Shown here one piece after another: positions 1,554 to 62,297 of a stretch of DNA of 64,000 nt. This DNA comes from Antedon mediterranea (Eukaryota; Animalia; Echinodermata). The notes under the pieces are model-generated. The model did no database searches. It worked only from the letters and a program-made list of their open reading frames with translations, and was not told the DNA's origin. Location of the stretch: assembly GCF_964355755.1 (NCBI RefSeq), contig NC_092675.1, positions 11,403,812 through 11,467,811 of the forward strand. Reading direction: 5' to 3'. The first letter of the stretch is position 1. Every line of letters starts with the position of its first letter. Made by a program: the position numbers and the translations under genes.

Positions 1554-3034
1554 CAGTGTTATGCGCGATTTGAACGATTTGCGCAATTTGAAATTGGGCA
1601 AAAAAAATCTTTGCGCAATTTGAATTGAAACATGTGTTTCAAATTGCGCAAGCAACGTATTAAATTGCGCAAGTAATCTGCAAATTGCGCAAGGTTTTTC
1701 GACAGATTGTGAAATCATGCACACCCATATTTTTATAGTAATTTCTAAGAATGATTCAAAATTAAAGATAAATATCGCATTTCCTTATTTTTGTAGTGCA
1801 AATATTGTTATAAGTTAGCATACCGTCGAAGAACCGACGAAGGAAAACGAAGCGGTGGTGTTCCACCAGGCGGGCGCGGCGCGGGCGGCCGGCTATAGCC
1901 TACTACTCTAGCCTAGCTAGGGTCTGGACTACTGATACTGACTAGGTTACATGGCCTAGCTTAAACTAATATTAAAAACTTAAAAAGTGAGTATTAAACA
2001 TTATCTTCATTGAAATGGTCTTATTTATACCGTACTGACGCGGGTATAAGCCCACCCCCCTCGAACATGAAATCACGTCAAGTTTGGGGGGTGGGCTTAT
2101 ACCCGAGGATCCAAAAATGCAGATCGTCAAAAACAGCACATGTACACTGTGTATTCCACCATGCGAGCGAGCGCCCTCACGTGTAAGACGTTTCCTCGAG
2201 GTGTAGACGTTACACGAGGTGTAGAGTGTCGGAAAATTAAGTTTATAGTTCGTGTAATTTATCGTAGAATATCTTATTTTAAACATCAATTTAACAAGAA
2301 TTTATCAAGCAGAAAAGCAAGTATACAATGTTCGTTAAATAGAAATGTACCAAAGAAATTTAATAAGCTTGTTTATGGCAGCCGATACGAAATAGTGGTT
2401 TTCCGTTTTGGCGACTTGTAGCGTCGTGTGTGAAGCGATCTTCGACCGCGATGGAGTGTAAACAAAACAGGACCGCTAGGCCTCATATGGCCTAGCGTAT
2501 ATTAGCCTAGCTTGGTTATGATCAAAGGTAGGTGTATTCGGTGTATGGACGTCGCCAAATACAAAATAATGTATTACGACACACACTGTAGATCTTCGAA
2601 TTAATGGGTGGGCTTATACCCGAGTGCCTCATTTTTCATGAAAATTAGTCAAAAGTCGGGGGTGGGCTTATACCCGAGTATGGGCTTATACCCGCGTCAG
2701 TACGGTAATAAAATACTAAATTTTAAACTCCTCTGCCTAGGCCTAGCCATGTATGGGAAAATTTACAGTTCGTTTTCAAATTGCGCAAAGGTGTCATATT
2801 GCGCAAGAACTATCTTGCGCAATTTACAAATTGTGCAGCGCAATTTAAAATTGCGCAAAGATTTTCTTGCGCAATTTGAAATTGCGCAAGTTGATTGCGC
2901 AATTTAAAATTGCGCAAAAAAATCCTTGCGCAATTTTAAATTGCGCAAGAATTCTTTGCGCAATTTCAAATTGCGCAAGGATTTTTTTGCGCAATTTCAA
3001 ATTGCGCAAATCGTTCAAATCGCGCATAACACCA
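1554..3034. mobile_element. MITE with arrays of subterminal AATTGCGCAA motifs
   Basis: Inverted ends GTGTTATGCGCGATTTGAACGATTTGCGCAATTTGAAATTG and CAATTTCAAATTGCGCAAATCGTTCAAATCGCGCATAACAC. Many TTGCGCAA palindromes at 1580-1695 and 2780-3010. Outer bases and TSD are uncertain. Confidence 0.7.
2030..2705. mobile_element. pogo/Tigger-like (Tc1/mariner) MITE
   Basis: TA|CCGTACTGACGCGGGTATAAGCCCA ... TGGGCTTATACCCGCGTCAGTACGG|TA, with a TA TSD and internal GGGCTTATACCCG repeats. Confidence 0.9.
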
Positions 3035-4620: not shown

Positions 4621-5901
4621 ATTTATATAAGTAGTAAATACAGTGTGAATTATCAAATAAATATTTATAATTAACAAACAATAATAAAAAATGTGATTTT
4701 TATTTATGTACCTAACCTTGGCATGTGTGTGCCAATCCTCGGCATACGCTGCCCAAGCAAGCCCTGAAATTATGTGCGAGCGTTTGCGCAATCGATCGTC
4801 GATGAAATAGCAGGCCTAACTTGGCTAGGCCTAGCCATGGCCAGATGTGAAATAAATGAGTCAAAAAACAGCGATATTAACTTTATTTTACCAACAATTA
4901 TATTTTGAATAAAATTTAATAAACAACATTGCAAACAATTTCATTTAATTAGTTCTGTTAGGTGCCGAAGTCTGGCACATATCATTAATTATCAACACCC
5001 CTCATAAACCCTATAAATTTTCATTGGTTTGAAAATGGAATATTCTGGAATGCTGCTACAATACAGTAGGAGCCTATTTCAATCTCAGACATGTCCCTCG
5101 TATGTTATTTTTCCTATCCTGGAATTTTAAATGGAACAGTCACATGTTAGCTGATTGATCTATTTTGCTGACATTTTCAGGTTTCAATGTTTATGGCTAC
5201 TGGCAGACATGTTTCGCTGTTGTCTAGTAAACGATCGGTGGTTTATATTTACCACCTATAAATAAAGTATATTATACTTTAAAATAAAAAAAAAAATCAA
5301 TTAATTATTTATAACTATAATATAAACAAAACCTGCCGAGGTTTGGCACATTCCCTATGTCTGGTACATCTACCCTACTAGATAGAGGGCTTACTTATTA
5401 TATCCGGGCTGTTGCTACAACACTCCAGTACTAACTAGGCCTCAGTAGGTAGGCGAGTTAGTAGACTAGGCTAATAGTAGAGGGAACAGACAATCGGGTC
5501 CATTGTAAGACGATCAGGCCCAAAGTGCGAGATGATTTTGCCCAACAAGGTTTTAAGACGATCGGAACCAGAAACGATCAGGCCCAGACGATCGGGCCCA
5601 ACAGGTAAGACGATCGGGTATATTTTATTTTGGTCGCAATAAAACCAACTTTTGGAATTTTTTATGGCGCGCGCCACTCTTTAATAGTTCAATTTTTATC
5701 ATAGCGATCATGGTTTTTAAATATATTGGGTTTTATTGCGTTTATTTGTATTTGACTCGCGCACTAAATACATGTTCGTGATCACTATACATTTCGTAAT
5801 CGTTTTTATATTAGGTATGCCTACTGTAGATTATTTATTTTACTGTTTTTATTTTTTCTGTTTTATTTTACTATTTTACTGACGATGAGTATTAATGCTA
5901 A

Positions 5902-7755
5902 TTAGTTATCCGCTTGGTATACCAAGCGGATAACTCCTTGTTATTGTATGAGATCAACAGTTTTTTTCTGTATTATTAGTTATCCGCTTAGTAGCGGATA
6001 ACTCCTTGTAATCGTCCTGTTACTTTTTTTTTAGTTATCCGCATTCAGCGGATAACTCCTTGTAACTGTCCTGTTACTTTTTTTAGTTATCCGCATTTAG
6101 CGGATAACTCCTTGTAACTGTCCTGTGTCTTTTTTGGCATTATTCTTCAGTCTTTCTCCCTCACTTTTTGTGCAGAGCGTATCTCTAAAATGGGTAAACA
6201 TAACATTTCATAACTTTGTCAACATATGGGCATTTACGTGAAGTTGTGCACCTCCTATTTTTGAATGACGTCATAGTTACGCAACGTGACTTACGCGTGA
6301 TTTTATGATTTTTTAAAATTGATCATAGATTTAAAACCAAGCGTAATTTTGTTTTTACACTTTGTGAAAATTTAAGTCATATCAAGGGCAAACTTTTTGT
6401 GCACAAAAAATGGCATGTTTTACAAGAAGTTACGCGCGCACGCGCGTTTGAAATTTTAAAATGCGAAAAATCAATTTCTAATCAACTTTCTACGCGTTTC
6501 ATGTCATTTTAAGCATGTCAAAAATTCCCACGCGTGCGCAAATTTTTACGTGTGCGGTGCGCACGTAGCATTAAAGACATACTTTTTTTGCGTGATTTAT
6601 GTTTTTCCAGCCTTTTCTAGTAATTTTACCAACTTTTCCAACAATTTCGACTTAAAATTACATCATACGAGCACGTCCAATTGGATAATTTGTGCGCGTT
6701 TTTGATCAATAAGTTCAAAAAATCGTCAAAATTATGCCTTTTTTTAAACAGGCATAGTTTCTAAACTAAACGGTGAAAGTTATTTTTATTACGTATTCTG
6801 GAAGTTGATGAGTTGTAGATATCGGATCAAACATTAATGTGGCTATCCGGACATTGTGACGTCATCGTATGGCCACACGAATGTAAAATATGGGATTTCT
6901 GTCTCTTTCGTTTTTGCTCATCACATTCAATGGAGCGCATCTCCACTTATCCGTTTTTCATTTTCTCCGAGATTTTAATAGTGTCTAGGTCAATCAACTA
7001 TCTTTCGTATGAGTTAAAAATATTATAATTTTTATGACGTCATCATATCTAAAAATGTAAATCATATTTTCACGTATTTTCATCTTTACAGTAAATTTTA
7101 ATCCGTTATAGCTCGTAAGAATAAAATGTGATAATTAAAGATTAAAATGTTTTCTGGAAGCTATTGGATTGTAGATATGAAATCATGTGAACATTTTGCC
7201 AATCGGATGTTGTGACGTCATTATATGGCCAGTTAAATAAAAACAGTCGTATTTTCATCTTTTGCGTCATAGTTCATTACATTTAAAAGAGCGCGCATCA
7301 ATATTTCACGTATTCAAATTTCTTCTACACGTTAATATGTTGTTACTGAGATAATTTCCTCCCGAAATTGCTATCTTAGTGTTTCATTTTGATACCGTAA
7401 CCATGTTAAAAATTTGAATAAATTGCGGGTTACGTAATTTCACCTATTCTACACTGTATGTAATATGTATACAGATTATACTGTATTTACTATATGACAC
7501 AAAATAGACTGAATTCAGCACTAACAACGTATGATATTCTTCAGTTCAGGTCATAATCTTTATCTGCTGTGTGCAATATTCCAACGTATGACGTGCACGT
7601 GGCGTTTGTCGTGCGGATAACTAACTCGTCAAAGTGACGAGTTTCATGTCTAGTTTTTTAGTTATCCGCTTAGTAGCGGATAACTCCTTGTAATCGTCCT
7701 GTTACTTTTTTTTGGTTATCCGCACTTGGCGGATAACCTCTTGTTATTGTCAGGA

Positions 7756-7790
<35 letters not shown>

Positions 7791-10700
7791 CTTTTTAGTT
7801 ATCCGCATTCAGCGGATAACTCCTTGTAACTGTCCTGTGTCTTTTTTTTTTTTTTCATTATTCTTCAGTCTTTCTCCCTCACTTTTTGTGCAGAGCGTAT
7901 CTCTAAAATGGGTAAACATAACATTTCATAACTTTGTCAACATATGGACATTTACGTGAAGTTGTGCACCTCCTATTTTTGAATGACGTCAGTGTTGCGC
8001 AACATGACTTACGCGCGTTTATATGAATTTACAGATAATAACATAGATCGAAAACCATATAACAATTTAAATTGAAACTTTGCAAAAGTTTAATTTATAT
8101 CAGGCGCTAACTTTCTGTTGAGAAAAAGTTGTGTGTTTTACACAAAGTTACGCGCGCACGCGCATTTAAAATTTCAAAATGCGCAAAATTAATTTCTAAT
8201 CAACTTTCTACGCGTTTCATGTCATTTTAAGCATGTAAAAAATTCCCACGCATGCGCAAATTTTTACGTGTGCGGTGCGCACGTAGCATTAAAAACATAT
8301 ATTTTTCGCGTGATTTATGTTTTTCCAGCCTTTTCTAGTAATTTTACCAACTTTTAAACAATTTCGACTTAAAGTTACGTCATACGAGCACGTCGAATTG
8401 GACAATTTGCGCACGTTTTTGATGAAAAAGTACAAAAATTTGTCAAAATTATGCCTTTTTTTAAACAATCGTAATTTCTAAACTACACGGTCAACTTTTT
8501 GTGGATGACATATTCTGGAAGTTGATGAGTTGTAGATATCGGATCATGTATTAATATGGCTAACCGGACATTTTAACGTCATCGTATGGCCACACGAATA
8601 TAAAATTGAGGATTTTTGTATCTTTCGTCATAGCTCATCACATTTAATAGAGCGCATCTCCACTTATACATTTTCCATTTTCACCCCGATTTTGATATTG
8701 TCTAGGTCAATCAACTATCTTTCGCATGAGTTAAAAATATTTTAATTGTTTTGACGTCATCGTGCCTAAAAATTTAAATTACATGTGGCATTAATTTCAT
8801 CTTTACAGTAAATTTTAATCTGTTATAGCTCGTAAGAATAAAATGTGATAATCACGATTAAAACGTTTTCTGGAAGCTATTGGATTGTAGATACGAAATC
8901 ATGTAAAAAAATTTTCAATCGGATGTTGTGACGTCATCATATGGCCCGTTAAATAAAAAAAGTCGTATTTTCATATTTTGCGTCATAGTTCATCACATTT
9001 AAAAGGGTGCGCATCTATATTTTACGTATTCAAATTTCTTCTACACGTTAATATGTTGTTCCTAAGATAATTTCCTTCTGAAATTGCTATCGAAGTGTTT
9101 CATTTTGATACCGTCGCCATGTTAAAAATTGGAATAAATGGCGGGTCCCGTAATTTCACCTATTCTACACTGTATGTAATATGTATACAGATTATACTGT
9201 TTGCATGTATACTATATGACACAAAATTGACAGAATTCAGCACTAACAGCATATCATATTCTTCAGTTCTTGTCATAATGCCATAATCTTTATCTGTGTG
9301 CAATATTCCAACGTATGACGTGCACGTGGCGTTTGTCGTTGTGCGGATAACTAACTCGTCAAAGTGACGAGTTTCATGTCTAGTTTATTCTTCTTTCTTT
9401 CCCAGAATTTTGTTGCGCGTATATCTCTAAATCTTCTCAACATAACATTTTGTAACTTTATCAGAAGATTGATCTCTATCTGAATATGTCGTAATAAGGT
9501 TTTCGGTACCGTTTGAGTTGCGCAGCGTAAGTTACGCGCGATTTTATGAATTTCGCGTATTTAATTTAGATCGAAAACTATTAAACCATTTAAATTGAAA
9601 CTTGGCAAAAGTTTAATTTATATCATGCGCTAACTTTCTATGGAGAGAAAATGGCATGTTTCAAAGAAAGTTACGCGCGCACGCGCGTTTAAAATTTCAA
9701 AATGGGAAAAATCAATTTCTAATCAACTTTCTACGCGTTTCATGTCATTTTGAGCATTTCAAAAATTCCCACGCGTGCGCAATTTTTTTACGCGCACGTG
9801 CGCACGTAGCGCAAAAACATCATTTTTTTGCTTGATTTTTGTTTTTCCTGTCTTTTTTAGAAAATTTACCAACTTTCAAACAATTTCGACTTAAAATCAC
9901 GTCATACGAGCACGTAGAATTAAACAATTTACGCGCATTTTTGATGAAAAAGTTCAAAAATTTGTCAAAATTATGCCTTTTTTTAAACAATCATAGATTC
10001 TAAACTACGTGGTGAACTTTTTTATAATTACATATTCTGTTAGTAGATTAGTTGCAGATATCAAATCATGCATCAATATGGCTAACCGGACATTGTGACG
10101 TCATCGTATGACCACTCGAATATAAAATAAATGATTTTTGTCTCTTTCCTCGTAGCTCGTCACATTTAATATAGCGCATCTCCACTTATTTGTATTCCAT
10201 TTCCCCCCATTTTTTTATGTTGTCTAGCTCTATCAATTATCTTTCGGACGATTCACCATTTTCAAAATTGTGATGACGTCATCATGTTCAAAAGCGTCAA
10301 TAACTTTGGTCACTTATTTTCACCTATTCTGCACTGTATGTAGTACGTATACAGTATATAGTGTATACCGTATATACTCAGACGTGACGAAAAATAGAGA
10401 GCGCACTGAAATTGTTTCAATGACTTAATCGTTTTTCTGCGCGCAATATTTTAACGTATGACGTGCGCGTGGCCTTTGCGCTGCGGATAACCTAACTCGT
10501 CCGTAGTGACGAGTTCAAATCTAGTTTTTCTTATTTCTTTCTCCCCCATTTTTGTGTCTCACGTATCTCAAAAACTTCTAAACATAACATTTCATAACTT
10601 TGTCAACATATGGGCATATACGTGAAGTTGTGCACCTCCTATTTTTGAATGACGTCAGAGTTGCGCAACGTGACTTACGCGCGATTTTATGATTTTTTAT

Positions 10701-13700
10701 GATTGACCATAGATTAAAAACCAAACGTAATTTTGTTTTGACACTTTGTGAAAATTTAAGTCATATCAAGTGCAAATTTTCTATGGATTAAAAATGGCAT
10801 GTTTTACAAGAAGTTACGCGCACACGCGCATTTAAAATTTCAAAATGCGCAAAATTAATTTCTAATCAACTTTCTACGCTGATCATGACATTTTAAGCAT
10901 GTCAAAAATTCCCACGCGCGCGAAAAAATTTACGCGTAAGGGGCGCACGGAGTATGAAAACCATGTTTTTTTTCTGGAATTTTGAGTGTCCAGCCTTTCG
11001 TAGTCATTTTAAACAAGATTGACATCATTTCAAGTTAAAATGACGTCATACGTACACGTTGATTTAGACCATTTGCATGCGTTTTAGTTGCAAAAGTGAC
11101 AAAATATTGTCAAAATTATGCCTATTTTGAATCTATTATAGCTCGTCAGGATCAAAGGTGACCCCAATTTGTTTTAACTTATTATGCAAGAAGATAAATT
11201 GTAGATATAAATTCATGCAGAATTTTTACCTCTCGGAAGTTATGACGTCATCGTATGGCCACACGAATGTAAAATATAGGATTTTTGTATCTTTCGTCAT
11301 AGCGCATCTCATTTAATAGAGCGCCTCTCCACTTATACGTATTCCATTTTAACCCAGATTTTGACATTTTCTAGGTCAATCTACTATTTTACGCATGAGT
11401 AAATTTTTTTTAAATTTTTATGACGTCATCATGTCTAAAAATGTAAATAACGTGGGTCACTTATATTTATCTTTACAGTAAATTTTAATCTGTTATAGCT
11501 CATCAGAATAAAATGTGATAATCACGATTAAAACGTTTTCTGGAAGCTATTGGATTGTAGATACGAATTCATGTAAACATTTTGCCAATCGGATGTTGTG
11601 ACGTCATCATATGGCCAGTTGAATAAAAAAAGACGTATTTTCATATTTTGCGTAATAGTTCATCACATTTAAAAGGGTACGCATCTATATTTTACGTATT
11701 CAAATTTCTTCTACACGTTAATATGTTGTTCCTGAGATAATTTCCTTCTGAAATTGCTATCCAAGTGTTTCATTTTGATACCGTCGCCATGTTAAAAATT
11801 GGAATAAATGGCGGGTCCCGTAATTTCACCTATTCTACACTGTATGTAATATGTATACAGATTTTACTGTTTGCATGTATATACTATATGACACAAAATT
11901 GACAGAATTCAGCACTAACAGCATATCATATTCTTCAGTTCTTGTCATAATGCCATAATCTTTATCTGTGTGCAATATTCCAACGTATGACGTGCACGTG
12001 GCGTTTGTCGTGGTGCGGATAACTAACTCGTCAATGTGACGAGTTTCATGTCTAGTTTTTCTTTCTTTCTCCCTCATTTTTGTGGCTCGCGTATCTCAAA
12101 AACGTGTAAACATAACATGTTATAACTTTGTCAGCATGAGGGCATTCAGGTGAAGTTGTGCACCTCCTATTTTTGAATGACGTCAGAGTTGCGCAACATG
12201 ACTTACGCCGTTTTTACGAATTTCGCATTTTTAACATAGATTGAAAACCATATAGCAATTTAAATTGAAACTTAACGAAAGTTTAATTGATATCTTGTGC
12301 TAACAGAATGTGAAAAAAAAATGGCATGTTTCACAGGAAGTTACGCGCGCACGCGCGTTTAAAATTTCAAAATGCGAAAAATCAATTTCTAATCAACTTT
12401 CTACGCGTTTCATGTCATTTTGAGCATGTAAAAAATTCCCACGTACGCGCATTTTTTTACGCATGCGGTGCGCACGTAGCGTTGAAAACCATTTTTTTCG
12501 CGTGATTTATGTTTTTCCAGCCTTTTCTAGTAATTTTACCAATTTTTGAACAATTTCGACTTAAAATTACGTCATACGGGCACGTCGAATTGGATAATTT
12601 ACGTGCATTTTTGATGAAAAAGTTCAAAAAGTCGTCAAAATTTGTCAAAATTATGCCCTTTTTTAAACAGTTATAGTTCCTAAACTAAACGGTGAAAGTT
12701 ATTTTTATTGCATATTCTGAAAGTTGATGAGTTGTAAATTTTGAATCATGCATTAATATGGCTAACCGGACATTGTGACGTCACCGTATGCCCACGCGAA
12801 TATAAAATATAGGATTTTTGTATCTTTCATCATAGCGCATGACATTTAATAGAGCGCATCTCCAATTATCTGTTTTCCATTTTTACCCCGATTTTTATAT
12901 TATCTAGGTCAATGAACTATCTTTCGTATGAGTTAAAAATATTTTAATATTTATGACGTCATCATGTCTAAAAATGTAAATAACGTGGGTCACTTATTTT
13001 CGTCCTTACAGTAAATTTCAATCTGTTATAGCTCGTCAGAATAAAACGTGATAATCATGATTAAAACGTTTTCTGGAAGCTATTGAATTGTAGATACGAA
13101 TTCATGTAAACATTTTGCCAATCGGATGTTGTGACGTCATCATATGGCCAGTTGAATAAAAAAAGGCGTATTTTCATATTTTGCGTAATAGTTCATCACA
13201 TTTAAAAGGGCGCGCATCTATATTTTACGTATCCCAAATTTCTTCTACACGTTAATATGTGGTTGCTGAGATAATGTCCTTCCGAAATTGCTAACTTAGT
13301 GTTTCATTTTGATACCGTCGCCATGTTAAAAATAAGAATAAATGGGGGGTCTCGTAATTTCACCTATTCTACACTGTATGTAACATGTATATACCGTTTG
13401 CACTGTATATACTATATGACACAAAATAGACTGAATTCAGCACTAACAACGTATGATATTCTTCAGTTCAGGTCATAATGCCATAATCTTTATCCGTGTG
13501 CAATATTCCAACGTATGACGTGCACGTGGCGTTTGTCGTGCGGATAACTAACTCGTCAAAGTGACGAGTTTCATGTCTAGTTTTTTTCTTATTTCTTTCT
13601 CCCCCATTTTTGTGTCTCACGTATCTCAAAAACTTGTAAACATAACATTTCATAACTTTGTCAACATATGGGCATATACGTGACGTTGTGCACCTCCTAT

Positions 13701-16630
13701 TTTTGAATGACGTCAGAGTTGCGCAACGTGACTTACGCGCGATTTTATGATTTTTTATGATTGACCATAGATTAAAAACCAAACGTAATTTTGTTTTGAC
13801 ACTTTGTGAAAATTTAAGTCATATCAAGTGCAAATTTTCTATGGATTAAAAATGGCATGTTATACAAGAAGTTACGCGCGCACGCGCATTTAAAATTTCA
13901 AAATGCGCAAAATTAATTTCTAATCAACTTTCTACGCTGATCATGACATTTTGAGCATGTCAAAAATTCCCACGCGCGCGAAAAAATTTACGCGTAAGGG
14001 GCGCACGGAGTATGAAAACCATGTTTTTTTTCTTGAATTTTGAGTGTCCAGCCTTTCGTAGTCATTTTAAACAAGATTGACATCATTTCAAGTTAAAATG
14101 ACGTCATACGTACACGTTGATTTAGACCATTTGCATGCGTTTTAGTTGCAAAAGTGACAAAATATTGTCAAAATTATGCCTATTTTGAATCTATTATAGC
14201 TCGTCAGGATCAAAGGTGACCCCAATTTGTTTTAACTTATTATGCAAGAAGATAAATTGTAGATATAAATTCATGCAGAATTTTTACCTCTCGGAAGTTA
14301 TGACGTCATCGTATGGCCACACGAATGTAAAATATAGGATTTTTGTATCTTTCGTCATAGCGCATCTCATTTAATAGAGCGCCTCTCCACTTATACGTAT
14401 TCCATTTTAACCCAGATTTTGACATTTTCTAGGTCAATCAACTATTTTACACATGAGTAAAATTTTTTTTAATTTTTATGACGTCATCATGTCTAAAAAT
14501 GTAAATAACGTGGGTCACTTATATTTATCTTTACAGTAAATTTTAATCTGTTATAGCTCATCAGAATAAAATGTTATAATCACGATTAAAACGTTTTCTG
14601 GAAGCTATTGGATTGTAGATACGAATTCATGTAAACATTTTGCCAATCGGATGTTGTGACGTCATCATATGGCCAGTTGAATAAAAAAAGACGTATTTTC
14701 ATATTTTGCGTAATAGTTCATCACATTTAAAAGGGTACGCATCTATATTTTACGTATTCAAATTTCTTCTACACGTTAATATGTTGTTCCTGAGATAATT
14801 TCCTTCTGAAATTGCTATCCAAGTGTTTCATTTTGATACCGTCGCCATGTTAAAAATTGGAATAAATGGCGGGTCCCGTAATTTCACCTATTCTACACTG
14901 TATGTAATATGTATACAGATTATACTGTTTGCATGTATATACTATATGACACAAAATTGACAGAATTCAGCACTAACAGCATATCATATTCTTCAGTTCT
15001 TGTCATAATGCCATAATCTTTATCTGTGTGCAATATTCCAACGTATGACGTGCACGTGGCGTTTGTCGTGGTGCGGATAACTAACTCGTCAATGTGACGA
15101 GTTTCATGTCTAGTTCTTCTTTCCATCCTTCCTTTTTGTGGATCGCGTTTCTCTAAAATGTGTAAACATAACATTTCATAACTTTGACAACATATGGGCA
15201 TTTATGTGAAGTTGTGCACCTCCTATTTTTGAATGACGTAATAGTTGCGCAACGTAACTTACGCGCAATTTTATGAATTTCAATGATTGATCATAGATTA
15301 AAAACTAAAAGTCATTTAGTATTGACACTTTGACAAAATTTAAGTCATATCAGGGGCAAACTTTCTACGGATTAAAAATGGCATGTTTCACTAGAAGTTA
15401 CGCGCGCACGCGCATTTAAAATTTCAAAATGCGCAAAATTAATTTCTAATCAACTTTTTATGCGTTTCTTGTTATTTTGAGCATGTCAAAAATTCCCACG
15501 GGCGCGCAATTTTTTACGCATGCGGTGCGCACGTAGCGTTAAAAACATATTTTTTTCCCTTGAATCATATTTTTCAAGCCTTTCCTAGTAATTTTGAAAA
15601 CAATTTAGACCTTTTCCAATTTAAATAACGCCATACGAACACGTTGAATTAAACATTTCATGCGCGTTTTTTATGAAAAAGCTTAAAAAATCGTCAAAAT
15701 TATGTCTTTTTTTAAACAGTCATAGTTTCTGAAGTTAACCGTGAACCGTTTATTTTTATTACAAAATCTAGAAGTTGATGAGTTGTAGATATCGGATCAT
15801 GCATCGATAAGGCTAAAAAAACATTGTGACGTCATCGTATGGCCACACGAATGTAAAATATAGGATTTTTGTCTCTTTCATTATTGCTCATCACATTCAA
15901 TGGAGCGCATCACGCTTATCTGTATTCCTTTTTCTCCTACATTTATATATTGTGTAGGTCAATCAACTTTCTTTAGCATGAGATAAAAATATTTTAATTT
16001 TTATGACGTCATCATGCCAAAAAATTTTAATTACGTGGGTCATTAATTTCATCTTTACAGTAAATTTTAATCTGTAATAGCTCGTAAGAATAAAATGTGA
16101 TAATCACGATTAAAACGTTTTATGGAAGCTATTGGATTGTAGATACGAATTCATGTAAACATTTTGCCAATCGGATGTTGTGACGTCATCATATGGCCAG
16201 TTGAATAAAAAAAGTCGTATTTTCATATTTTGCGTAATAGTTCATCACATTTAAAAGGGTGCGCATCTATATTTTACGTATTCAAATTTCTTCTACACGT
16301 TAATATGTTGTTCCTGAGATAATTTCCTTCTGAAATTGCTATCTAAGTGTTTCATTTTGATACCGTCGCCATGTTAAAAATTGGAATAAATGGCGGGTCC
16401 CGTAATTTCACCTATTCTACACTGTATGTAATATGTATACAGATTATACTGTTTGCATGTATATACTATATGACACAAAATTGACAGAATTCAGCACTAA
16501 CAGCATATCATATTCTTCAGTTCTTGTCATAATGCCATAATCTTTATCTGTGTGCAATATTCCAACGTAAGACGTGCACGTGGCGTTTGTCGTGGTGCGG
16601 ATAACTAACTCGTCAAAGTGACGAGTTTCA
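5902..16630 (+). mobile_element. Cluster of 7 nested Helentron-associated non-autonomous elements (HINE/DINE-1-like architecture)
   Basis: 5' heads (TTAGTTATCCGC-loop-GCGGATAAC) at 5902, 5976, 6031, 6083, 7658, 7712 and 7795. 3' tails (GCGGATAACTAA subTIR + CTCGTCA-NNN-TGACGAG stem-loop + CTAG) end at 7653, 9383, 10524, 12055, 13580, 15113 and about 16630 (the last lacks CTAG). Junctions lie in TT runs with no TSD. Confidence 0.85.
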
Positions 16631-17669
16631 TTATGTATTTCATTTACTTTTACAGGTGAGGAGGAGAGGATGTGCTTTTTAAAATTACTGTTATTGTAAA
16701 AATATGATTGTTTATAATTATACTTATTAAATGTTAACATTGTTTAAATGTAATCATTAATATAATAAATGTCAATGGTCGGATAATTCTATGTGGTAGG
16801 AGATGAGACGAGTAAACCTTCCTGCGCGCATGTTGTTCTTCAGCACATGATTTTGTTGTTGACTGACACGTCAGGGATTCTCCTTAAAATAAAACTTAGC
16901 ATTTTACGAACTACTGTAAACATCAACGCGGGTAAGAGTTTCCTGCCAAAAGTGGAAACAGTTTGAATTTATGATATTTTTAATTAGGTTCTCTGTCATA
17001 TCAGTAAAATAAAAAACAAATAAAAAAAAGTCCGTGTCTAATACTATAGATAATGGTAATGTCATTTGTAATTAACATCTGTTTAATTTCTGCATGTACA
17101 CTTTTGTGGGTAAATCACCCACCTTTTTATTATTCTTAAATCCATTGTAGATTCATCTTTCCTCAATCAACATATTTTATAATAGGCCTACCCTAAAACT
17201 TGCATTGTAGGCATAGAAAGAACGTCTATACTATATTACTAAATAAACTATTTTAACTATTAATTTCTGATTTATTTTCATTATATACATTGAACGTTAA
17301 CAATTTCAGGATGTTTACATTATAATAATAATACTGTTATTGTTAATGCATTGGCCTAGCTAGGCTACTTATCAACCTGAGAGATTTGAAATGCGTGACA
17401 GACTCTCCGCCATTTTGGTTATTTCGGCTTACCCACCGGCTCAACAACAAAAATTCAGGGCATATCGGGGTTTTCCCTTTATAATGCAAATGTCACTGTC
17501 AGTGTGGCATCACACTTCACACAAGATTTTACATTACATCACGATACATTAATCCCGAAACTGTGGGCGTTTGGTACATTTACGAACACTATTTTGTTTT
17601 AAATATTAGCATTCCTCATTTTTTTGATTATGCAGCAGAATTACAACACCAACCAAGAGTAACAAAAAA

Positions 17670-17734
17670 ATGTCAAGCTCAACCAAGGCAAGATTTGAAG
17701 AACTTTTACAACAGGTAGCTACTGAACAGAATGA
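17670..17734 (+). CDS. AHI1: Jouberin (AHI1), first recognisable coding exon
   Basis: MSSSTKARFEELLQQVATEQN resembles the vertebrate AHI1 N-terminal TKVRFEELL as I recall it. GA|GTAAGT donor, phase 2. The frame is open back to CAG acceptors at 17635/17638, so the true start may lie upstream. Confidence 0.8.
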
Positions 17735-18177
17735 GTAAGTTTTAAAGATCGTGTTGTGCAGCCCGCAAAGGCTTTTTACCATGTTATTGTATGTATTATA
17801 ATGAAGGTTTGGAACTCAAGGAACATATACCGTATTGTTTTCCAGTTTAAAACTCTTATTCTAGGATAACCAATGTGATTTTTCAGTTATTTATGATTTG
17901 ACATATTTTGTATCAAAATTGAATTTGAAACAGGATCACAACAATCCTTTTTTCATTAGTCAAATACTAACCACAAGATAAACATTTAGGATTTGTGTGT
18001 TTCTATTTTTATTTTTGCCAAAACATTCACTGAATAAGTTCTACATTCATGATACTTGATAGAGGTAACCCATGACATTTATTTATGTAAAGTGAAATTT
18101 ATTATTCTGCATTCAAGATGACTTTTTCTGTAATTTGCATATTTGATATATGGATTAACTTTTGGAACTTTTTTAAG

Positions 18178-18238
18178 TGAAAAGAAAGCAAGCCCAAAAA
18201 AAAAAAAGAAAGCAAGAAGGCGAGCAGATGAGCAAATG
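18178..18238 (+). CDS. AHI1: Jouberin (AHI1) coding exon
   Basis: TTTTAAG| (D)EKKASPKKKKKARRRADEQM |GTAAGT. Phase 2 in and 0 out match both neighbouring exons. Confidence 0.8.
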
Positions 18239-18539
18239 GTAAGTATGTGTGTTTTTTTTATGGTAACATGATTCTATGTTGCTTCATTTGTTATCACAAA
18301 TCGTTCTTTGTTGTTGTGGTAGATTTCAAGACATCCTTCCTTTATTAGCCTGAGCCACTAATGAAAAAAAATAGTTTGTATATTTTGTACGGTTGTATAA
18401 ATGTTTCCTACTCAACTCAAATTGGACGGCAATTGTACTGGGAAGGTTTTAAACTACATTTGAAAACCAACCCAAGTGAGGAAAAATGCTGGAATTGCTA
18501 GGTAGGGTTTGAAAATGACTGCAATTGTACTTTGACTTA

Positions 18540-20020
18540 TTAGTTATCCGCAACTTGGCGGATAACTCCTTGTGATTGTATGAGATCATCTTCAACTGTT
18601 TTTTTCTGTATTATTCTTCTTTCTTTCCACCCTATGTGTGCATCGTGTTTCTCTAAAACGTGTAAACATAACATTTCGTAACTTTGTCAACATATCAACA
18701 TTTACGTAAAGTTGTGCACCTCCTATTTTTGAATAATGTTAGAGTTGCGCAACGTGAGTTGCACACGATTTTATGAATTTAAATGATTGATTTTAATCTG
18801 ATTTAATTTGGTAATTAAAAACCAAAAGTCATTTTGAATTGACACTTATTAATTAATTATAAATGGCATATTTCCTACAAAGTTACACACGCACGCGCAT
18901 TTAAAATTTTTAAATGTGTAACATTAATTTCTGATAAATTTTCTATACGTTAGGACATTTTGAGCATTTTGCATGCGCACAGCTCGTACATAGCATACTT
19001 TCTGTGACAGATTTAATTTATTTTTATGAATTTGAATTACAGAATAATGACGCATGTGCATGTTAGACTTTAAAAACTGTGCGCCTAAAAATTTCAAATT
19101 CAATGCAAATTTATGAAAAATATGCCTACTTTAAATCTATTATAGCGCTTCAGGAAGACCATTGACCCACCATTTTTTCAACTTATTTTGAAAGCTAATG
19201 AGTTGTAAGATATGAAAGTTGTCTGAAGTCATTATATGGCTACTCGAATGAAAAAAAAATGGATTTTTGTCCATTTCGTCATAGCTCATCGCCTTTAATA
19301 CAATGCATCTCGCTTATTAGTATTACATTATTTCCCCTAGTTTTTAATATTGTCTCTAGATTAATCATTTATTTTTCGCATGAGTTACAACTATTTTAAT
19401 TTGGATGATGTCATCATGTCAAAAAATTTTAATAGTGTGGGTCACTTATTTTCCTCTTTACAGTAAATTTCAATATGTTATAGCTTGTCAGAATAAAAAG
19501 TAATACTCCTGATTAAAATGTTTTCTGGAAGCTGTTTGAATGGTAGATACAAATTCATGTAAACATTTTGCCAATCGGATGTTGTGATGTCGTCATATGG
19601 CCATTTAAATAAAAAAGTTGGATTTTAATCTTTTGTGTCATAGTTCATCACATTTAAAAGAGCGCGCATCTTGATTCTATGTATCAGAATTTTTTCAACA
19701 TTTTAATATGTTTTTGTTAAAACAATTATCTTCCGAAACTGTTATCTTCATATTTAATTTTGATGGCGTTATCATGTTAAAAATTTGAATAAAAGGAGGG
19801 TCAAGTAATTTCAACTGCTCAATTTAATAATTACACTGTATGTAGATAACTGTATATACTATAATATAAGGCAAAAAAATAGCCAGAGTTTTGCACCAAC
19901 ATATTATTATCAGGTTATAAGTTCTGTAATCTTTTTCTGTTTGCATTTTCTAGCGTACATGCACATGGCGTTGTTGCTGTGCGGATAACTAACTTGTCAA
20001 AGTGACGAGATCAAATCTAG
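18540..20020 (+). mobile_element. Solo, more diverged HINE of the same family, in an AHI1 intron
   Basis: Head TTAGTTATCCGCAACTTGGCGGATAACTCC and tail GCGGATAACTAACTTGTCAAAGTGACGAGATCAAATCTAG|TT. The body is homologous to the upstream units. Confidence 0.88.
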
Positions 20021-20313
20021 TTCAAATTAGAACCAACAGAGACAAAAGACCTAACCAACACTCGTTATTTGGCTATGTAATTAAAAATGTGTTTTCAGTC
20101 CAATTTCTTTGTCATGGCCAAATTCGGTAATTCTACAATTCTTTGCCATATTCTCTATGTCACAATCAGGTTGTAGAGAGGTAATAATGAGTTCACTTAA
20201 ATTAAACTGCTAGTTGTTGTTATTAGTCCAACCAAATTCAGTCAGAAAATGGCTGATTTCTTGTATTTTAAAAAAAGATATTGAGTGAAATCTTGTCAAT
20301 GTTTTTTTATCAG

Positions 20314-20558
20314 TTAGAACGGCTAAAAGAAGGGGCTGACCTACAAAAAGAACAGGATGCATCATTACTTGCCAACACATACAATGCAGAAGACAGTCCC
20401 AGATTTCGAAAGAATGTCACGAATGAACGACGCCCCAAACTACCTGCAAAAAGTGGCAAAGTTAATAAAGGATTTGAAGGAGATGATGTGATTGAGGATG
20501 AAGAAAAGCAAAAAATACAGAGAAAGAATTCACCAAAGAAATTAAATGTGCAAGAAAA
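20314..20558 (+). CDS. AHI1: Jouberin (AHI1) coding exon
   Basis: TATCAG| LERLKEGADLQKEQD...KLNVQE |GTAAGT. Phase 0 in, 2 out; charged N-terminal region. Confidence 0.8.
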
Positions 20559-21719
20559 GTAAGTTCATTAACTGTCGGCCATCTTTATTTTATGTGAAAG
20601 TTATACCCTTTATGGTAGTCCACTTTGTACTATTTATATGTGGCACATGCAAGAGAAATCAGACGTAAGTCTTGATACCATGTCTACTTCATTACGTGTA
20701 CAGCTCCTCAGGAAGTCTACCCGAGCCATAAACATATACCAGGCTCGGGTATCACATGATTCACACCATCTAGCTATGTAAACAACATTGAACAAAAGTG
20801 TTTGTTCAATTAATTAGCGTTTAACTCCCAAATCACTGGAGCGTGCTATTTGGTACTTTGTGGGCTGTTGCTACAAACTGAAAGTCACGTGTACACATGA
20901 TTCATACTTTGATATTAATCTGCCTTCAAATACTACTATTTATTATATAATTTTCTTGGAAATTATCAAAAATAAATATTATATATAGTCAATAAGATTG
21001 TGTTAAACAAAGAAATTGTACTAAAATTAATATGAACTTATTTTTGTACTCAAACATTTATGCGTGATGAGGTCACCGGCACGGCGTGCACAGAGAGAGC
21101 AGGCCCGGGGAGCTAGCGAAGATCGCTGCACACACTACGCTCGAATAAACAACTCGCCAAAACGGAAAACCCCTATTTGGTATCGTCTGCCATAAACAAG
21201 CTTATTAAATTTCTTTGGAACATTTCTATCTAACGAACATTGTATACTTGCTTTTCTGATTGATAAATTCTTGTTCAATTGATGTTTAAAATAAGATATT
21301 CTACGATAGATGACATGAACTATAAGTTAAATTTTCTGACACTATACACATTGTGAGGCTTGTGTGGTGGTAAAAACCAATGTACCAAAAATGCTATATA
21401 CCGTTTCAGGGATGTCTATGATTAAATCACAGTACAGTATGTATTGCGATAATTATTAGTCTGGGAGCCCAAAAGGCTTTAATTAGCAATTTGAGTACAA
21501 AAGGTTTGAGGTGTGGAGTGTTTAGATTTAGGGACCCAGTAATGGCAATTCTTAAGTGACGGGTCCTGTTCAATTTTAAGGGGGAACCACCCAAATTACT
21601 CCTAAAATTGGATTTAATTAGCATATCGAGTACATGGACCAAACCAATTCTAAAATGTTCTCTTACCTATCACAGTATCAGGAATCAATATCCATAATTC
21701 CTGTGCTAAATTTACTTAA

Positions 21720-23044
21720 AGATGTATTGTTCCTTTGACTAATTAAAAAATAAATTTTTTTAAATATTTTTTTAATAGTTATTAACTTTCACCAAAAATT
21801 AGTTGAAAAAATAATAATTTAACGGGAATACGGACGTTTTTTTGTTCAAAAAATAACTTTGGCCCTGTTTCTGCTGCCAACTAAATACCGTATATTATAC
21901 GGTATTTTTTGAATACCGTATATATACGGTATATTTTTTGCAGCAGAAACTGCGCTCATAAAAAATATACCGTATTTTGTATACCGTATTTTCCCCACAA
22001 AATTTGTGGATAAAATACGGTATTTACAAATTTATACAGTATTTTTTGTACCCGTTTCTGCTGCCAATAAAAAATACCGTATTTTTTTTTTACATGACAA
22101 AAGGTCAACATTCGTATTTTTATTTTCTGTCGCTGTCAGCTGTTTTACACACGTGTATATATATATTCGGCGAAAATGTGGAGCGAAGACGTCACAGTTT
22201 TACTAAATAAATTTGTGTGGGGAAGCTAAAATGTCTGGCCAACTAAAAGGTAATAAAACCACATTTATAAAGACATTTCTAAAAAAATAAAGCAGGAGTA
22301 TGGAATAGACTTGTCTCCAAAGCAAGTAAACTCAAAGCTGAAGAGCCTGCGAAAGCAGTACAACATTGCAAAATACAATAACTCGGGGAGGGAACAAATT
22401 AATTGTCCCCATTACGATGTTTTCTGTGCTCTCACAACATCTCTATCACTAGGGCTAGGCTGTTGAAAGTGAGACGTAAAACTTCCTTTATTGCGACTTT
22501 TAATTATCGATCAAATAAATGAATGGCAATTTGGGTAAAAAAGGTGAAATTTAACACGACCACCCAAGAAGTATTGTTAGCAGAAACGGGGTACTAAAAA
22601 ATACGGTATAAAAAATACCGTATTTTATACCGTATTTTTATACCGTATTTTGAGCAGTTGCAGCAGAAACAGGCCCTTTGACTTCCATCCAGTCAAAGTT
22701 TTGCAATGCAACGCGCTTGTTTGGCTACTCTGTATGCATAATCATAAAACTTCCTCGCGATCTGTGTGAAAACACCTTCTCAACCGCGACGAGTTGTAAA
22801 CAATCCTAATTAGCATCATGCATAATGCATACTCGTGGTTTGAAATCTTTGTTTACTTTCGCTCGTGACGATTTTCCAGACGAAATGTAATCAAATTAAT
22901 TTACCTGTTAATTATGTAAACTTGTTGTTTTTGCTTCGAATTTTCGCCTTAAAGTGAATAACTTTAATATTACTTTGATATGGTCAATTTAAATTTAGAA
23001 TATTTTTTTTTTTCATTTTTTGTGTTTCAAGGGACAATACATCT
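21720..23044. mobile_element. Kolobok-like non-autonomous element (TTAA TSD)
   Basis: TTAA|AGATGTATTGTTCCT ... AGGGACAATACATCT|TTAA. The rejoined flanks (AAATTTACTTAA-GGACGCC) match the uninterrupted host repeat near 23710 (AATTAACTTAAGAACGCC). Confidence 0.8.
21861..22676. mobile_element. PIF/Harbinger deletion derivative with a Myb/SANT-like remnant
   Basis: TTT|GGCCCTGTTTCTGCTGC ... GCAGCAGAAACAGGCCC|TTT, with a 3-bp TSD and ATACCGTAT repeats. About 22296-22425 reads EYGIDLSPKQVNSKLKSLRKQYNIAKYNNSGREQINCPHYD. Confidence 0.75.
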
Positions 23045-25587: not shown

Positions 25588-28081
25588 TAAGTCTTTTTTA
25601 AGTTAAATTAGCACAGGAATGGTAATCTAAGGATTAAGGATCTTGATTCCTGATAGATTATTAGGTCAGAGAACATTTTAGAATTGGTTTGGTCAATGAA
25701 GGCTACTTATACGAATTAAATCTGATTTTTTATTATTTTGACCTTTGATCCACTCTTAAGCGGTTTTAAAAACTTAAGAATTAGTCCAGTCAATCTAATG
25801 ATATACCCACCACAAATTGCAATAGTAGTCCAGTCAATCTATGACAAAAAAGGGCGTAACCCAAAACAAATTGCAATAGTTTCCAAACCTTTTTTATTTG
25901 ATTCTATAAGCATCTGGGAAGATCATTTCCAAAATCTACCAAAATCGGTTCAGTGGAACATACTTTTTAAGGGGTTTTAAGGTCATAGGGGTCAAATTAC
26001 AAATTTTTCTGTTTTGAAAACTACTAGGCGTAGCATGTTAATTTTGGGGTCTTCTGACCCATATTTATATGTACTCTAATGAAACCTTTTTACCAAAAAT
26101 TACAGGAAAGCATGTTTTTGACCTTTGACCTATTTTATTGTATATTTTCGTATATTCGTATCTTAGTAACCAGTGGGCGTAGATGAGCGTTATTTGCGTC
26201 AAACTACTCAGAAGGTCAATGTTTATATTAGTTCTAATGGAAAAGATTCGTGTAAAATGACCGGAAGTCATTATTTTGACCTTTGATACATATTCATTAT
26301 TTTAGATTTCTCAGTAAATACATTTTTTATATCTCAGTAACCACTAAGCACAACTTCGTCAATTTTGTGTCAAAAGATTCAGAAGACTCATATTTATATT
26401 CACTATAATGAAAAAGTTTTTTAAAAAATGGATAGAAACTATGTTTTTGACCTTTGACCTATTATACCAGTATATTTGTTTATATTTACTCTAATGAAAA
26501 CAAATGCAAATGTACAATATAACCGAAAATCATTATTTTGACCGTTAACATTTTCTAGTCGTGTCATGAATAAATCTCGAGTCTCGAGTATAACATTTTA
26601 AATTTGACCAAATAATAAGTGCGGCGATCTGACAGACGTTGGGCTGGAATATCAACTGATCTTGCCACAGAACAGTGTCTTATGCGTACTGTAGCATAAA
26701 AACAAGAGGAGGTCTAACAAGAGGGCGAGGATTAACAGAAACGACTTGTCTGGGTCCTTTCAACTCCAGTCTGTGCCAAGATCAATCATTCAATGCAAGA
26801 GTTCACTAACGTTTCGTATACTACCAGTGAACAACATAAAGAAACAACATATGCCAGAAAGATGAAGGACCTCAGTGATGTACAAGACATATCAAGGTAT
26901 CTGACACTGCGAAAACCATTCAATACAGACAGTACAAAATCACTGACAAACATTGCAACTGGAGTGACGGCACATATCAATGTAGACTGTGACAATGCCA
27001 AGCATGTAGGTCAACAAATTGTGCAATCAATGACAAACCAAAAGGTCGCCAACTACACATTTCTGAAAAAGAGCCAATCCATTACAATGAACTCTAAAAG
27101 CGCATTGAAGATAAAAGATGATGTGGTCAATGTAGATCCTTTACTTCTATTTCAACGACTTGTAACTGCCGGCACAAGATGCGATAATTTATCAGATATA
27201 TTTAGATTGTTTGAATCACCAGATATGATGAGGTCTGCAAATAAAGCTAGTTTAGCTGATAGTTTGTAGTCAACAGCAATCGAGGTTGCTCCAGAACCTC
27301 CTGATCAAATTCAGTACGTCTTAGATGGAGGAGCACTACTTCATAAAATTCCATGGACAAGAGGGTCTTCATGGGGTGACATTATGAGAGTATACACTAA
27401 ATATATTTCTCACAAATTAGTCCAGTCCCTAAGGGGAGAAAAAGGGGTGGGATGTTACCAAACTGGATACAAATTTTTCAGTATAGCAGTTTGGTAGAGT
27501 ATAGTGTGGAGATGCCAAAACAAAGTTACTGGAAATCTGATTTGACCTCTGTGACCTCTGACCTCAATTTTTATATTTTTCTATTATATAACTAAAAATC
27601 GCCATATCTTGGAAACGCAGGGACATTTTACATTTATTTTTTTTTTAAAATGCTTGGAAGATATATATTTATATTCGCTATAATGAAAATAATTGTACAA
27701 AAATGGCCGCAAGGCTTTATTTTTCAGTTTGACCTTTGACCTTGATTGCCTAATATCTCAATAACACGCAATCTCAGAGATTTGAGAATGGGCTCAAAAT
27801 GTTAAGAAAATAAATCTAATATTTAGTCTAATAGAAACTTTTTTCAAAAAATTACCATAAATTAAGCTTTTTTGACCCTTGACCTCTAATGTTTGAATAT
27901 GTCAATATCTCGGTAACTATTTGTCCTAAAAAGTTCAGTTTGGTGTCAAATTGTTTAGAATATACACATTTATATTTGCTCTAACAAAATATTTTGTCAG
28001 AATTCAATTGGAAATGTCATTTTGAGCTATGACCCATCGTTTTGCATATATTTAGCAATCAATAATCTAAAAAAAGAGATC

Positions 28082-28338
28082 GAGAGAGGAGAAGGGGTTG
28101 GGGTGGATGGAGAGACACATATTTTTGTTACATGTTACACAAATATTAAACTCTGTCTACACTATAACATTTTTATGCGACAAAAAAATGTGATGTGCCC
28201 ATATATGGACACGATGAATGACATATCACTACCATATTTGGGCACATCACACCTTTTTTGTTAAACTAGTTTATAGTGTAGACAAACATGTAAAAAATAT
28301 GTGTCTCTCCATCACCCCAACCACCTCCCCCTCTCTCG
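28082..28338. repeat. Imperfect palindrome of about 255 bp (hairpin MITE-like) inside C
   Basis: GATGGAGAGACACATATTTTT / AAAAATATGTGTCTCTCCATC and GTGATGTGCCC / GGGCACATCAC arms. Confidence 0.75.
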
Positions 28339-29560: not shown

Positions 29561-32500
29561 TTAATGTTATTTAACTTTTAAGTTTATTTAATTTTTTGTT
29601 GATATTAAGTGTTGCTCTTACGGTGTAGGCCTACCATGCGATGGAATTATATATTGAAATTAAATTAAACATTAAGTTTTAAAAAAATTGTAAAAGGCTA
29701 GATAGGATATTGAATGTAGTTCTGGTCCATTAAATCTATATTTTAGGTATATTAATATAAGTATGACACACGCACGCTTAACAGTATATCCTGGTCATAC
29801 CTCAAACTGGCATTTCCAGTAAAAATATGATAACATCTTCTATTAGAGCTAATATAAATGTTTACATTTTGAACATTTTGACACCAAGTTGAACTTTTTA
29901 TGACATTTGGTTACAGAGATACAGACATATTTAAACATTAAAGGTCAAAGGTCAGTAAATGACATTTCCTGTGGATTTGGAAGAACATGTTTAATTAGAG
30001 TATATATAAATATGTATGCTCTTAACAATTTGAAACAAATTTCAAGAAATTTTGACCAGTAGTTATTGAGATATAGTAAGCCGAGGTCAAAGGTCAAAAC
30101 ATTGAGAAATTACATTTCCGGTCGTTTTTTGGAAAAAAGTTCTATTAGAGCGAATATAAATATGTACCCTCTGATCTATTTGACACCAATATCATTTCAA
30201 TTGTCAAACCCGTTGCGGAGATATGGCTGTTTAAGATAGAAATATAAAAATTGAGGTCAGAGGTCACAGAGGTCAAATCAGATTTCCAGTAACTTTGTTT
30301 TGGTATCTCCATATCATGTTCTATCAACATGCCAAAGGGCACACTTGTATCCACTATGGTAACATCATTTCCCCTTAGGGACTGGACTAAATATGGAAAA
30401 CCTATTGTTGGTTTTGATGGGTACGATAACTCACTAAGTACAAAAGACTGTACACATACAAGGAGAAGTGGTGGTGGTGGTGTAGCTGTACACTTTGACC
30501 AATCTATGACCTTACAAACCAAAAAAGAAGAATTTCTGTCAAACGTTCAAAACAAACAAAGATTCATTAAGATTTTGGGAAATAGTCTTGAAAAAGAAGG
30601 TTGTACTGTTCACCACGCAGAAGCTGACGCTGACTATCTTGTGTCGAAGATGGCTCTGTCCTGTGCAGAACAAATAGACACGGTTGTCATCGCAGATGAT
30701 ACAGATATCCTAGTCCTCCTTATCCACCATGGTGGTCACACCAAACATAATGTATGGTTCAAGCCAAACCAAAGGAAAGAAACTAAAAAGGTGCAACGAT
30801 GTTGGAACATTGCGGCAACAAGACTTGACCTTGGCAGCGATGTTTGTAAATATATCCTATTTTGTCACGCGTTCCTTGGATGTGACACGACATCGCGATT
30901 TTTTGGTATTGGGAAAATCAAAGCAGTAATTAAAGTAAGAAGTGACTGTTTCTTTTCTGAACAAGCCAAAGTGTTTATGACTTGTAAGGCAAACAGACAG
31001 GAGGTAATTGCAGCGGGTAATAACGCCATTTTGTCTTTGTATGGTAGCAGCGATAATGAATTGAGGTTTCGTAAATTTCATGAAAAGACTACATGCAATA
31101 CTAAAGCAGTTCATCCACGTTCTTTACCCCCAACGACATCAGCGGCAAAGTATCATAGTCAAGGGTGTACCAACAAGTTCAAGTTTGGCTTGGAAATGAA
31201 GAAAATGTACCTCCAGATAAATATGGATGGAAGATAAGCCAAGGCAGGATGATACCATATTTGGCGGACAACCCCCCAGCACCACAATCGCTCCTACAAA
31301 TCATAAGATGCAAATGCAAAACAGGCTGCTATAATATGAAATGCAGCTGTAGGAACAATGGATTAGATTGCTCCATGGCATGTAGTGAGTGTCGAAGTGT
31401 ATGCGCAAACATTTCCCTAGATAATAATGAAGATACCGATTCTGAAGATTCAATAATGGGTTTGTAAAATCAGACGATTGGTAAATATTCTCAACCAGGC
31501 CTATTTGGATATTTTTCTGTTTTGTGTGTTTTTAGAGTAAATATAAACAGAATAATGAATAGTTAAATGTTATCTTGGGTGCTGATCTATGAAGAAATAT
31601 AACACCAATATATTGCCCCAATTACTAAACGTTTTCTGGATAGATATCAAAGGTCAAAATAATTACTTTCGCATTGACTATATACACAGACATTTTTTAT
31701 TAGAGTGGATATCCTTCTGAGTTGTTTGACACAAAAAATGCTCATCTAAACCCATAGTTCACAAAGATACAAATATATAAATATAATATTTGAAAGTTTC
31801 CGGTCATTTTCTGTAAAAATTGTTTCATTAGAGTAAATAAATATGGTTCTTCTGAATTGTTTAACACAAAAGTTACGCTTATTGGTCACCGAGATACAAA
31901 AAATATATTTAGTGAGATATGAAATAAAGAATATATGTTTACGGTCAAAACGATGACTTTCGGTCATACCACACAACACTTTTTCATTAAAGTGAATATA
32001 AACATAGACCTTTTGAATATTTTGACACAAAAAATGCTCATCTACGCCCATTGGTTACAAAGATATGAATATACCAATATAATAGGTCAAAGGTCAAAAG
32101 AGTAGTTTCCGGTCATTTTTTTGTAAAAAGTTTTATTAGAGTGAATATAAATAAGGGTCTTCTGAATTGATTAACACAAAAATTACGAAGTTACGCCTAT
32201 TGGTCACCGAGATACAAAAAATTTAATTAGTGAAATACTATAAAATAATGAATATATGTCAAAGGTCAAAATGATGTCGTCTAGTCATAATACACAAAAC
32301 GTTTTCATTAGAGTGAATATAAACATAGACCTTCTGGGTATTTTGACACCAAAAACGCTTGTTTACGCCCAGTGGTTACCGAGATATGAATATGCCAAAA
32401 TAATAGGTCAAAGGTCAAAAACATGGATTCCGGTCATTTTTGATAAAAAACTTTCATTAGAGTGAATATAAATATGGGTCTTCTGAATTGTTTGACACCA

Positions 32501-62264: not shown

Positions 62265-62297
62265 GTGAGTACAAGTGTACACAAATATGTCATAATA

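Follow-up and report, generated by a model that had tools for sequence, protein, structure and literature searches.

Positions 5902–16630 of a 64,000-nt window of Antedon mediterranea NC_092675.1, to which all coordinates below refer, hold seven non-coding copies, 1.2–1.6 kb long, of a HINE-type transposable element, nested six deep, most likely by successive insertions into the T-rich tract behind a resident hairpin. We favor successive insertion because it accounts for the stacked hairpins, the truncated-looking bodies and the way in which the two pair. A reading made beforehand from the letters of the window (hereafter the sequence-only reading) had counted seven hairpin heads (H1–H7) and seven bodies with tails (B1–B7), and a motif scan finds exactly those, all on the plus strand. 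All seven bodies are indeed tailed, although B7 has lost the last 7 nt of its tail and the element that ends in B3 is some 360 nt short. The whole window contains eight heads and eight tails, again on the plus strand throughout, the eighth pair forming a solo copy at 18540–20020.

A balanced stack of heads and tails

Reading heads (H) and tails (T) in order across the stack gives H H H H T H H H T T T T T T, a balanced bracket string that allows a single nesting, H1[H2[H3[H4-B1; H5[H6[H7-B2]B3]B4]B5]B6]B7; the six levels that had been proposed are thus recovered from the order of the parts. When the elements are reconstructed accordingly (E1–E7, numbered by their heads; Table 1), they measure 1571–1591 nt, apart from E6 at 1224 nt (a gap of 362 alignment columns), the sum of these lengths being equal to that of the array by construction. 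They align end to end, and outside the T-run region E1–E5 and E7 have no private gap of at least 15 columns. The T-run of E6 (7758–7796) is enlarged to more than 30 T's, compared with approximately 11–16 in the other elements that host an insertion in their T-run.

Table 1. Coordinates of the stacked elements and of the solo copy in the window
Feature	Position (nt)	Strand	Description
Heads H1–H7, starts	5902, 5976, 6031, 6083, 7658, 7712, 7795	+	
3' subTIRs, starts	7613, 9343, 10483, 12015, 13540, 15073, 16597	+	
H1	5902–5975	+	Head of outermost E1: subTIR, long hairpin, spacer, T-run; broken at offset 74
H2	5976–6030	+	Head of E2; broken inside its own T-run, offset 55
H3	6031–6082	+	Head of E3; broken at offset 52
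E4 (H4+B1)	6083–7653	+	Unbroken, 1571 nt
Four T's	7654–7657	+	Separate E4 from E5; putatively from the E3 T-run
H5	7658–7711	+	Head of E5, broken at offset 54; equal to H2 as far as the T-run
H6	7712–7794	+	Head of E6; variant subTIR, long T-run; broken at offset 83
E7 (H7+B2)	7795–9383	+	Unbroken, 1589 nt, innermost layer
B3	9384–10524	+	Body and variant tail of E6, ~360 nt shorter
B4	10525–12055	+	Body and tail of E5
B5	12056–13580	+	Body and tail of E3
B6	13581–15113	+	Body and tail of E2
B7	15114–16630	+	Body and tail of E1; final 7 nt of the usual tail absent
Solo copy	18540–20020	+	More diverged member with intact head-body junction; ~70–72% identity to six of the seven stacked copies

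Pairing of heads and bodies

Balance alone is weak evidence, since 429 of the 3432 possible orders of seven heads and seven tails are balanced. Keeping the three intact pairs (H4-B1, H7-B2 and the solo copy) as they are leaves 120 pairings, and all three of the sequence checks, which were chosen post hoc with the sequence already in view, are satisfied by two of them: the bracket parse and its indistinguishable H2/H5 swap. First, a G at base 3 of the subterminal inverted repeat (subTIR) occurs in H6 only and the complementary C in the third tail only, as had been claimed; the loop of the H6 hairpin and the ending of this tail are both solo-like, unlike those of the other six copies. Second, H2 and H5, described earlier as identical with near-identical bodies, are at distance 0.00 as far as the T-run, and the complete E2 (H2+B6) and E5 (H5+B4) are separated by 12 substitutions and a single 3-nt indel in the T-run over approximately 1585 nt (99.2% identity). 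Third, joining H1 to B7 recreates the junction of the solo copy better than any other of 25 head-body joins (score 115; runner-up 100), in agreement with the third pairing that had been singled out. Moreover, when distances between heads are correlated with distances between body starts, a measure that involves no chosen features, the bracket parse ranks third to fourth of the 120 at three lengths (r 0.67–0.74; median over pairings −0.01 to 0.12). Within the reach of these tests, the bracket parse of the sequence-only reading is supported.

Element type

Every copy has TT and a 12-bp subTIR at its 5' end, where the subTIR and the inverted repeat beside it fold into a hairpin (10–14 bp in all eight heads). 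The 3' subTIR is a perfect 12-bp complement in seven of the eight copies, beginning 40–41 nt from the end (34 in the truncated E1), and in E6 it is a variant that matches the 5' copy and is longer by one base, 42 nt from the end. Downstream of it, stem-loops with stems of 7–9 bp are predicted in all eight copies (−3.3 to −8.3 kcal/mol), which end in CTAG except where E1 lacks its final nucleotides. The longest stop-free frame spans 61–82 aa in all eight, amounting to no coding capacity; neither a microsatellite nor a central tandem repeat was found in the elements, and an Rfam search of 5500–20500 returned 0 matches. In every reconstructed target site (8/8), TT follows the junction directly on its 3' side and nothing longer is duplicated; the signal could include a 2-bp TT duplication, and the H1 site is the only one with an intact counterpart (the solo copy).

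DINE-1/HINE elements are characterized by subTIRs, of which the 5' one is palindromic or is followed by a short inverted repeat, a 3' stem-loop, a lack of coding capacity and T-rich TT targets that are not duplicated at greater length, with subTIRs of 12–15 bp and a 3' copy approximately 38–60 bp from the end (PMC4067079); the end features given for HLE2 likewise agree with the copies described here, the distinction between Helentron and Helitron2 being debated (PMC11417382). By its terminal features, the element is of HINE structure (non-autonomous HLE2/Helentron type), and the subTIRs, 3' stem-loops and TT targets that the sequence-only reading had attributed to it are all present. A canonical Helitron1 is ruled out by the TT start and the subTIRs, the 3' CTAG being the only feature in common.

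Mosaic bodies

Apart from the E2/E5 pair, the stacked units are 67–89% identical to one another, while in the final alignment window six of the seven copies share 97–100% identity. Subfamilies are defined by a 3'-end rule (PMC4067079), under which these six copies would constitute one subfamily of mosaic variants. The 104 informative sites of E1, E2, E3, E4 and E7 are arranged in blocks: the incompatibility of neighboring sites is 0.366 against 0.579 when permuted, and none of 5000 permutations was as low. E7, for example, is 99% E4-like at its 5' end, and its 3' end agrees with E1 and E2 at 98–100%. Judged by this block structure, the variants recombine and the bodies are recombinant mosaics, so the "different subfamilies" of the sequence-only reading is too loose a term.

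The family in public contigs

Seven public sequencing runs cover part of the region, of which we used four: X4, X5 and X6, from one sample, and X1, hence at most two samples. The contigs are filtered, and their depth does not equal copy number. All four runs contain contigs in which a tail passes straight into the start of a body at the H1-type A^TT site (16, 8, 4 and 3 contigs), a junction that makes up 9.8, 6.2, 2.9 and 3.3% of the depth there. Head-to-head joints were found in X4 (three kinds, one of them entering a head of H4 type at that A^TT position) and X1. The recurrence of both kinds of junction shows that nesting is family-wide. Several X4 contigs run from a B3-type tail through the remainder of a T-run into a body start. 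An H2/H5-type head leads into the start of a B4/B6-like body in one X1 contig, whose upstream flank is unrelated, and, weakly, in an X4 contig with a shorter side of 21 letters and 12 different letters in between. Dividing summed depth by that of low-copy contigs yields 4,700–11,300 copies, a figure inflated by contig overlap, which suggests that the family numbers thousands of copies.

Insertion sites and competing explanations

Counted along the host element, the six inner junctions fall at offsets 74, 55, 52, 56, 54 and 83, which places them 25–56 nt past the host hairpin, five within the T-run and one at A^TT directly after it, and all six insertions have the same orientation. The junctions spread over offsets 52–83, and the insertion spot is therefore a narrow zone rather than a single base. 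This zone holds 2.4–10.5% of the TT sites and 4.5–34% of the TTTT sites of its hosts, counting both strands; multiplied over six insertions, these shares give 4.7e-9 (TT) and 2.3e-6 (TTTT), values that are conditional on landing inside the host and on a zone defined after the fact.

The nesting could be real and yet follow from sequence preference alone, the element carrying a T-tract or TTATT-like motif and the resident head going unrecognized. HINEs do favor T-rich targets (PMC4067079), and the five inner sites within T-runs fit such a preference. Each element, however, offers 46–53 runs of at least four T's or A's (38 in E6), yet in all six cases the insertion entered the run behind the head, and always on a single strand. 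The sites flanking E1 and the solo copy share A^TT only, with no common hexamer. For a genome of 0.3–1 Gb with 2,000–10,000 copies and one site per copy (assumed, not measured, figures), at most 0.05% of insertions would be drawn to that site if the target were ATT and 0.3–4.3% if it were a strict hexamer. A nested share of 3–10% in the contigs against at most 0.05% therefore indicates that nested insertions are strongly enriched, unless target choice is strict, against which the two flank sites argue, with nothing beyond A^TT in common. We consider preference alone unlikely.

Several observations weigh against nesting by successive insertion, among them the overlap of the strict-hexamer expectation with the observed share. 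No contig among those listed spans the locus, and none reaches 31 letters both left and right of a head-head junction (best 32 and 28); the assembly of the stack therefore rests unconfirmed by contigs. Positions 5863–5889 have zero cover in three of three runs, and 5350–5457 and 5512–5538 are likewise uncovered; the contigs being filtered, these gaps prove nothing. The sequence-only reading expected solo copies to repeat the bracket pairs: the H2/H5-type head with its B4/B6-like start does so, but intact H6-B3, H3-B5 and H1-B7 were not among the matches listed (15 of 254 joints and 18 of 66 loose ends). H2- and H3-type hairpins also run into other spacers in the contigs, so heads are not bound to a single body, and mosaic bodies weaken any test of solo-copy pairing past the body start. 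In the correlation above, the two pairings ranked over the bracket parse exchange B5 and B7; only the solo-junction score favors H1-B7, junction scores with E4 or E7 as the template being uninformative, with B5 preferred for most heads. All four runs also contain exact tail-to-head junctions with two T's (contigs at window positions 7654 and 5976–6083), which may represent circle junctions, concatemers or side-by-side insertions. Finally, the 10 long open reading frames (ORFs) scanned, out of 13 listed for the window, gave no match to Rep/helicase families.

A further qualification is that the independence of all seven events is not established, because E5[E6[E7]] (7658–12055) may be a single block. 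Such a pre-built block, perhaps the E2 of the other haplotype, would have moved as a composite or been merged by the assembler, leaving fewer than seven events. E2 and E5 differ at so few sites that their divergence could be of allelic level, composite or multi-head transposition has been proposed (PMC5148889; PMC3288121), and the want of a spanning contig leaves room for a merger. Between the E4-tail/H5 junction and the H1/H2 junction, however, there is no homology except T's, so that crossover or overlap assembly hardly explains the former; a composite would have to be read through two intact terminator hairpins, to judge by PMC4778049; and a solo source for E5 is available, since an H2/H5-type head with a B4-like start occurs elsewhere. 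The block is in our view improbable. Of the growth by repeated independent insertion at a hotspot that had been proposed, successive insertion and the shared zone are retained.

A rolling-circle concatemer or an unequal-crossover array of 5'-truncated units can draw on the exact tail-to-head junctions, on Helitron tandem arrays described in the literature and on 3' parts that are 97–100% alike in several bodies, but is largely refuted and very unlikely: neighboring units are 67–85% identical overall and their heads are piled at the front, which excludes one rolling-circle burst, the seemingly missing heads all stand stacked upstream, in agreement with the bodies in number and diagnostic bases, and the depth of tail-to-body junctions exceeds that of tail-to-head junctions 13.6-, 10.6-, 4.7- and 1.3-fold in the four runs. 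Nor does the locus correspond to a rolling-circle tandem array or satellite of near-identical head-to-tail units, the heads standing apart from the bodies.

Order of the layers and a possible mechanism

Under successive insertion, the layers were likely laid down in the order E1, E2, E3, next E5 and E4, with E6 and E7 following within E5. Since E2 preceded E3 and E3 preceded E5, while E2 and E5 are only 12 substitutions in ~1585 nt apart, the inner layers are young and several variants were active together, barring gene conversion. E5 cannot be a copy of E2 made once E2 was interrupted.

Transposition would depend on a RepHel transposase supplied in trans by an autonomous HLE2/Helentron, single copies presumably being inserted at TT without a longer target duplication and the tract behind a resident head being preferred beyond its share of TT sites. 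The transposase probably binds the resident subTIR hairpin, whereupon the incoming strand would be joined at the closest T-tract that opens readily. A fresh head and T-tract come with every new copy, and a stack can therefore go on growing. Circular intermediates and 3' terminator hairpins have been shown for Helraiser (PMC4778049) and suggested for FoHeli1 (PMC5148889). More tentatively, and with somewhat less than an even chance of being right, this HLE2 family may be self-targeted by position, its transposase docking on the left-end hairpin of a resident copy and integrating a few helical turns downstream; stacks would then be unlimited in growth, their insertion order readable, and would serve as recombination sites from which mosaics arise, a general and unreported mode of animal HINEs.

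Other features of the window and further searches

The window is AT-rich (GC 0.29–0.41). The palindrome TGACGTCA, which we take to be CRE-like (cAMP response element), occurs 2–5 times per stacked element, 26 times in total; the solo copy has none, and 51.8 kb of background have 8. CpG observed/expected is 1.5–1.9 in the stacked elements against 0.86 in the background. The family may thereby spread transcription-factor sites.

Approximately 25 nt past the end of the stack (16631–16660), a pyrimidine-rich tract ending in CAG resembles a splice acceptor by eye, and stretches near 17650–17735, 18180–18240 and 20317–20560 resemble exons, so the solo copy may be intronic. A headless fragment on the minus strand (49–154) has approximately 80–82% similarity to the 5' portion of the family's bodies. 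Remnants of a hAT transposase (PF05699) and of reverse transcriptases (PF00078) lie at 35354–36643, 40473–41759 and 54164–56078, all on the minus strand. Two plus-strand ORFs, 26736–27269 (177 aa) and 30293–31237 (314 aa), have no Pfam match and are flanked by long inverted similarities (25859–26476 with 32068–32687; 27417–28034 with 29793–30390); their region is perhaps one of nested transposons with terminal inverted repeats (TIRs). Short tandem arrays are found at 38128–38807, 39188–39431, 31795–32550 and 50832–51797 (units of ~237, 74 and 321 nt, and one more of ~325 nt), and palindromic stretches resembling miniature inverted-repeat transposable elements (MITEs) at 2776–3010, 21867–22651, 28081–28338 and 61852–62476.

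The exact element pattern had no match in metagenome, viral or genome contigs. A looser hairpin pattern retrieved 103 metagenome loci without homology past the hairpin (1 BLAST match, of 41 nt), which we regard as unrelated palindromes. These loci (L001–L103) include two prokaryote-like groups, one GC-rich and one AT-rich (e.g. L003, L010 and L017; L004, L014 and L029), both similar in appearance to repetitive extragenic palindromes, and share a 10-bp hairpin core owing to the search pattern.

Significance and comparison with known systems

HLE2/Helentron target choice is biochemically untested according to PMC4067079. A hotspot linked to the element's own left end lends itself to a direct assay and hints at a coupling of end binding with target capture. 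Stacks of this kind record the exact time order of variants and offer a harmless landing place, and repeat pipelines would mis-annotate them as 1.5-kb satellites or concatemers.

The copies resemble HINE/DINE-1 elements (PMC4067079) in their 12-bp subTIRs, 5' inverted repeat, 3' stem-loop, non-coding nature and T-rich TT target with no longer duplication, and differ from them in their CTAG end, in the absence of a microsatellite or central tandem repeat and in their deep self-nesting, of which there is no description in what is available of PMC4067079. The nearest precedent is FoHeli, a Helitron2-like element of Fusarium oxysporum, whose duplicated 5' termini of 31–85 nt have been put down to self-insertion near the 5' end; the same source gives one nested FoHeli example, and explains three tandem copies in Metarhizium by a double insertion into the 5' end or as a rolling-circle product (PMC5148889). 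FoHeli, however, has several heads per tail and its nesting is mostly inferred, whereas here seven heads keep their tails, six deep, in an animal host. Maize Helitrons with multiple termini are likewise nested, as intermediates to chimeric elements, but have Helitron1 ends, and in what is available of PMC3288121 no fixed insertion spot is described, unlike in this stack. MITE multimers of rice and maize comprise more than 10% of rice MITEs and arise by independent events, with high self-insertion in some families (PMC5172404); unlike the stack, they are cut-and-paste elements with TIRs and target duplications, and mostly dimers. The literature searched, which included few subscription papers and was available in part, yielded no account of an animal HINE stack that is balanced and six levels deep. 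For Fusarium Helitron2, insertion of elements into their own kind close to the 5' end has already been proposed, and the deep, balanced HINE stack of Antedon mediterranea is a variant of this known behavior.

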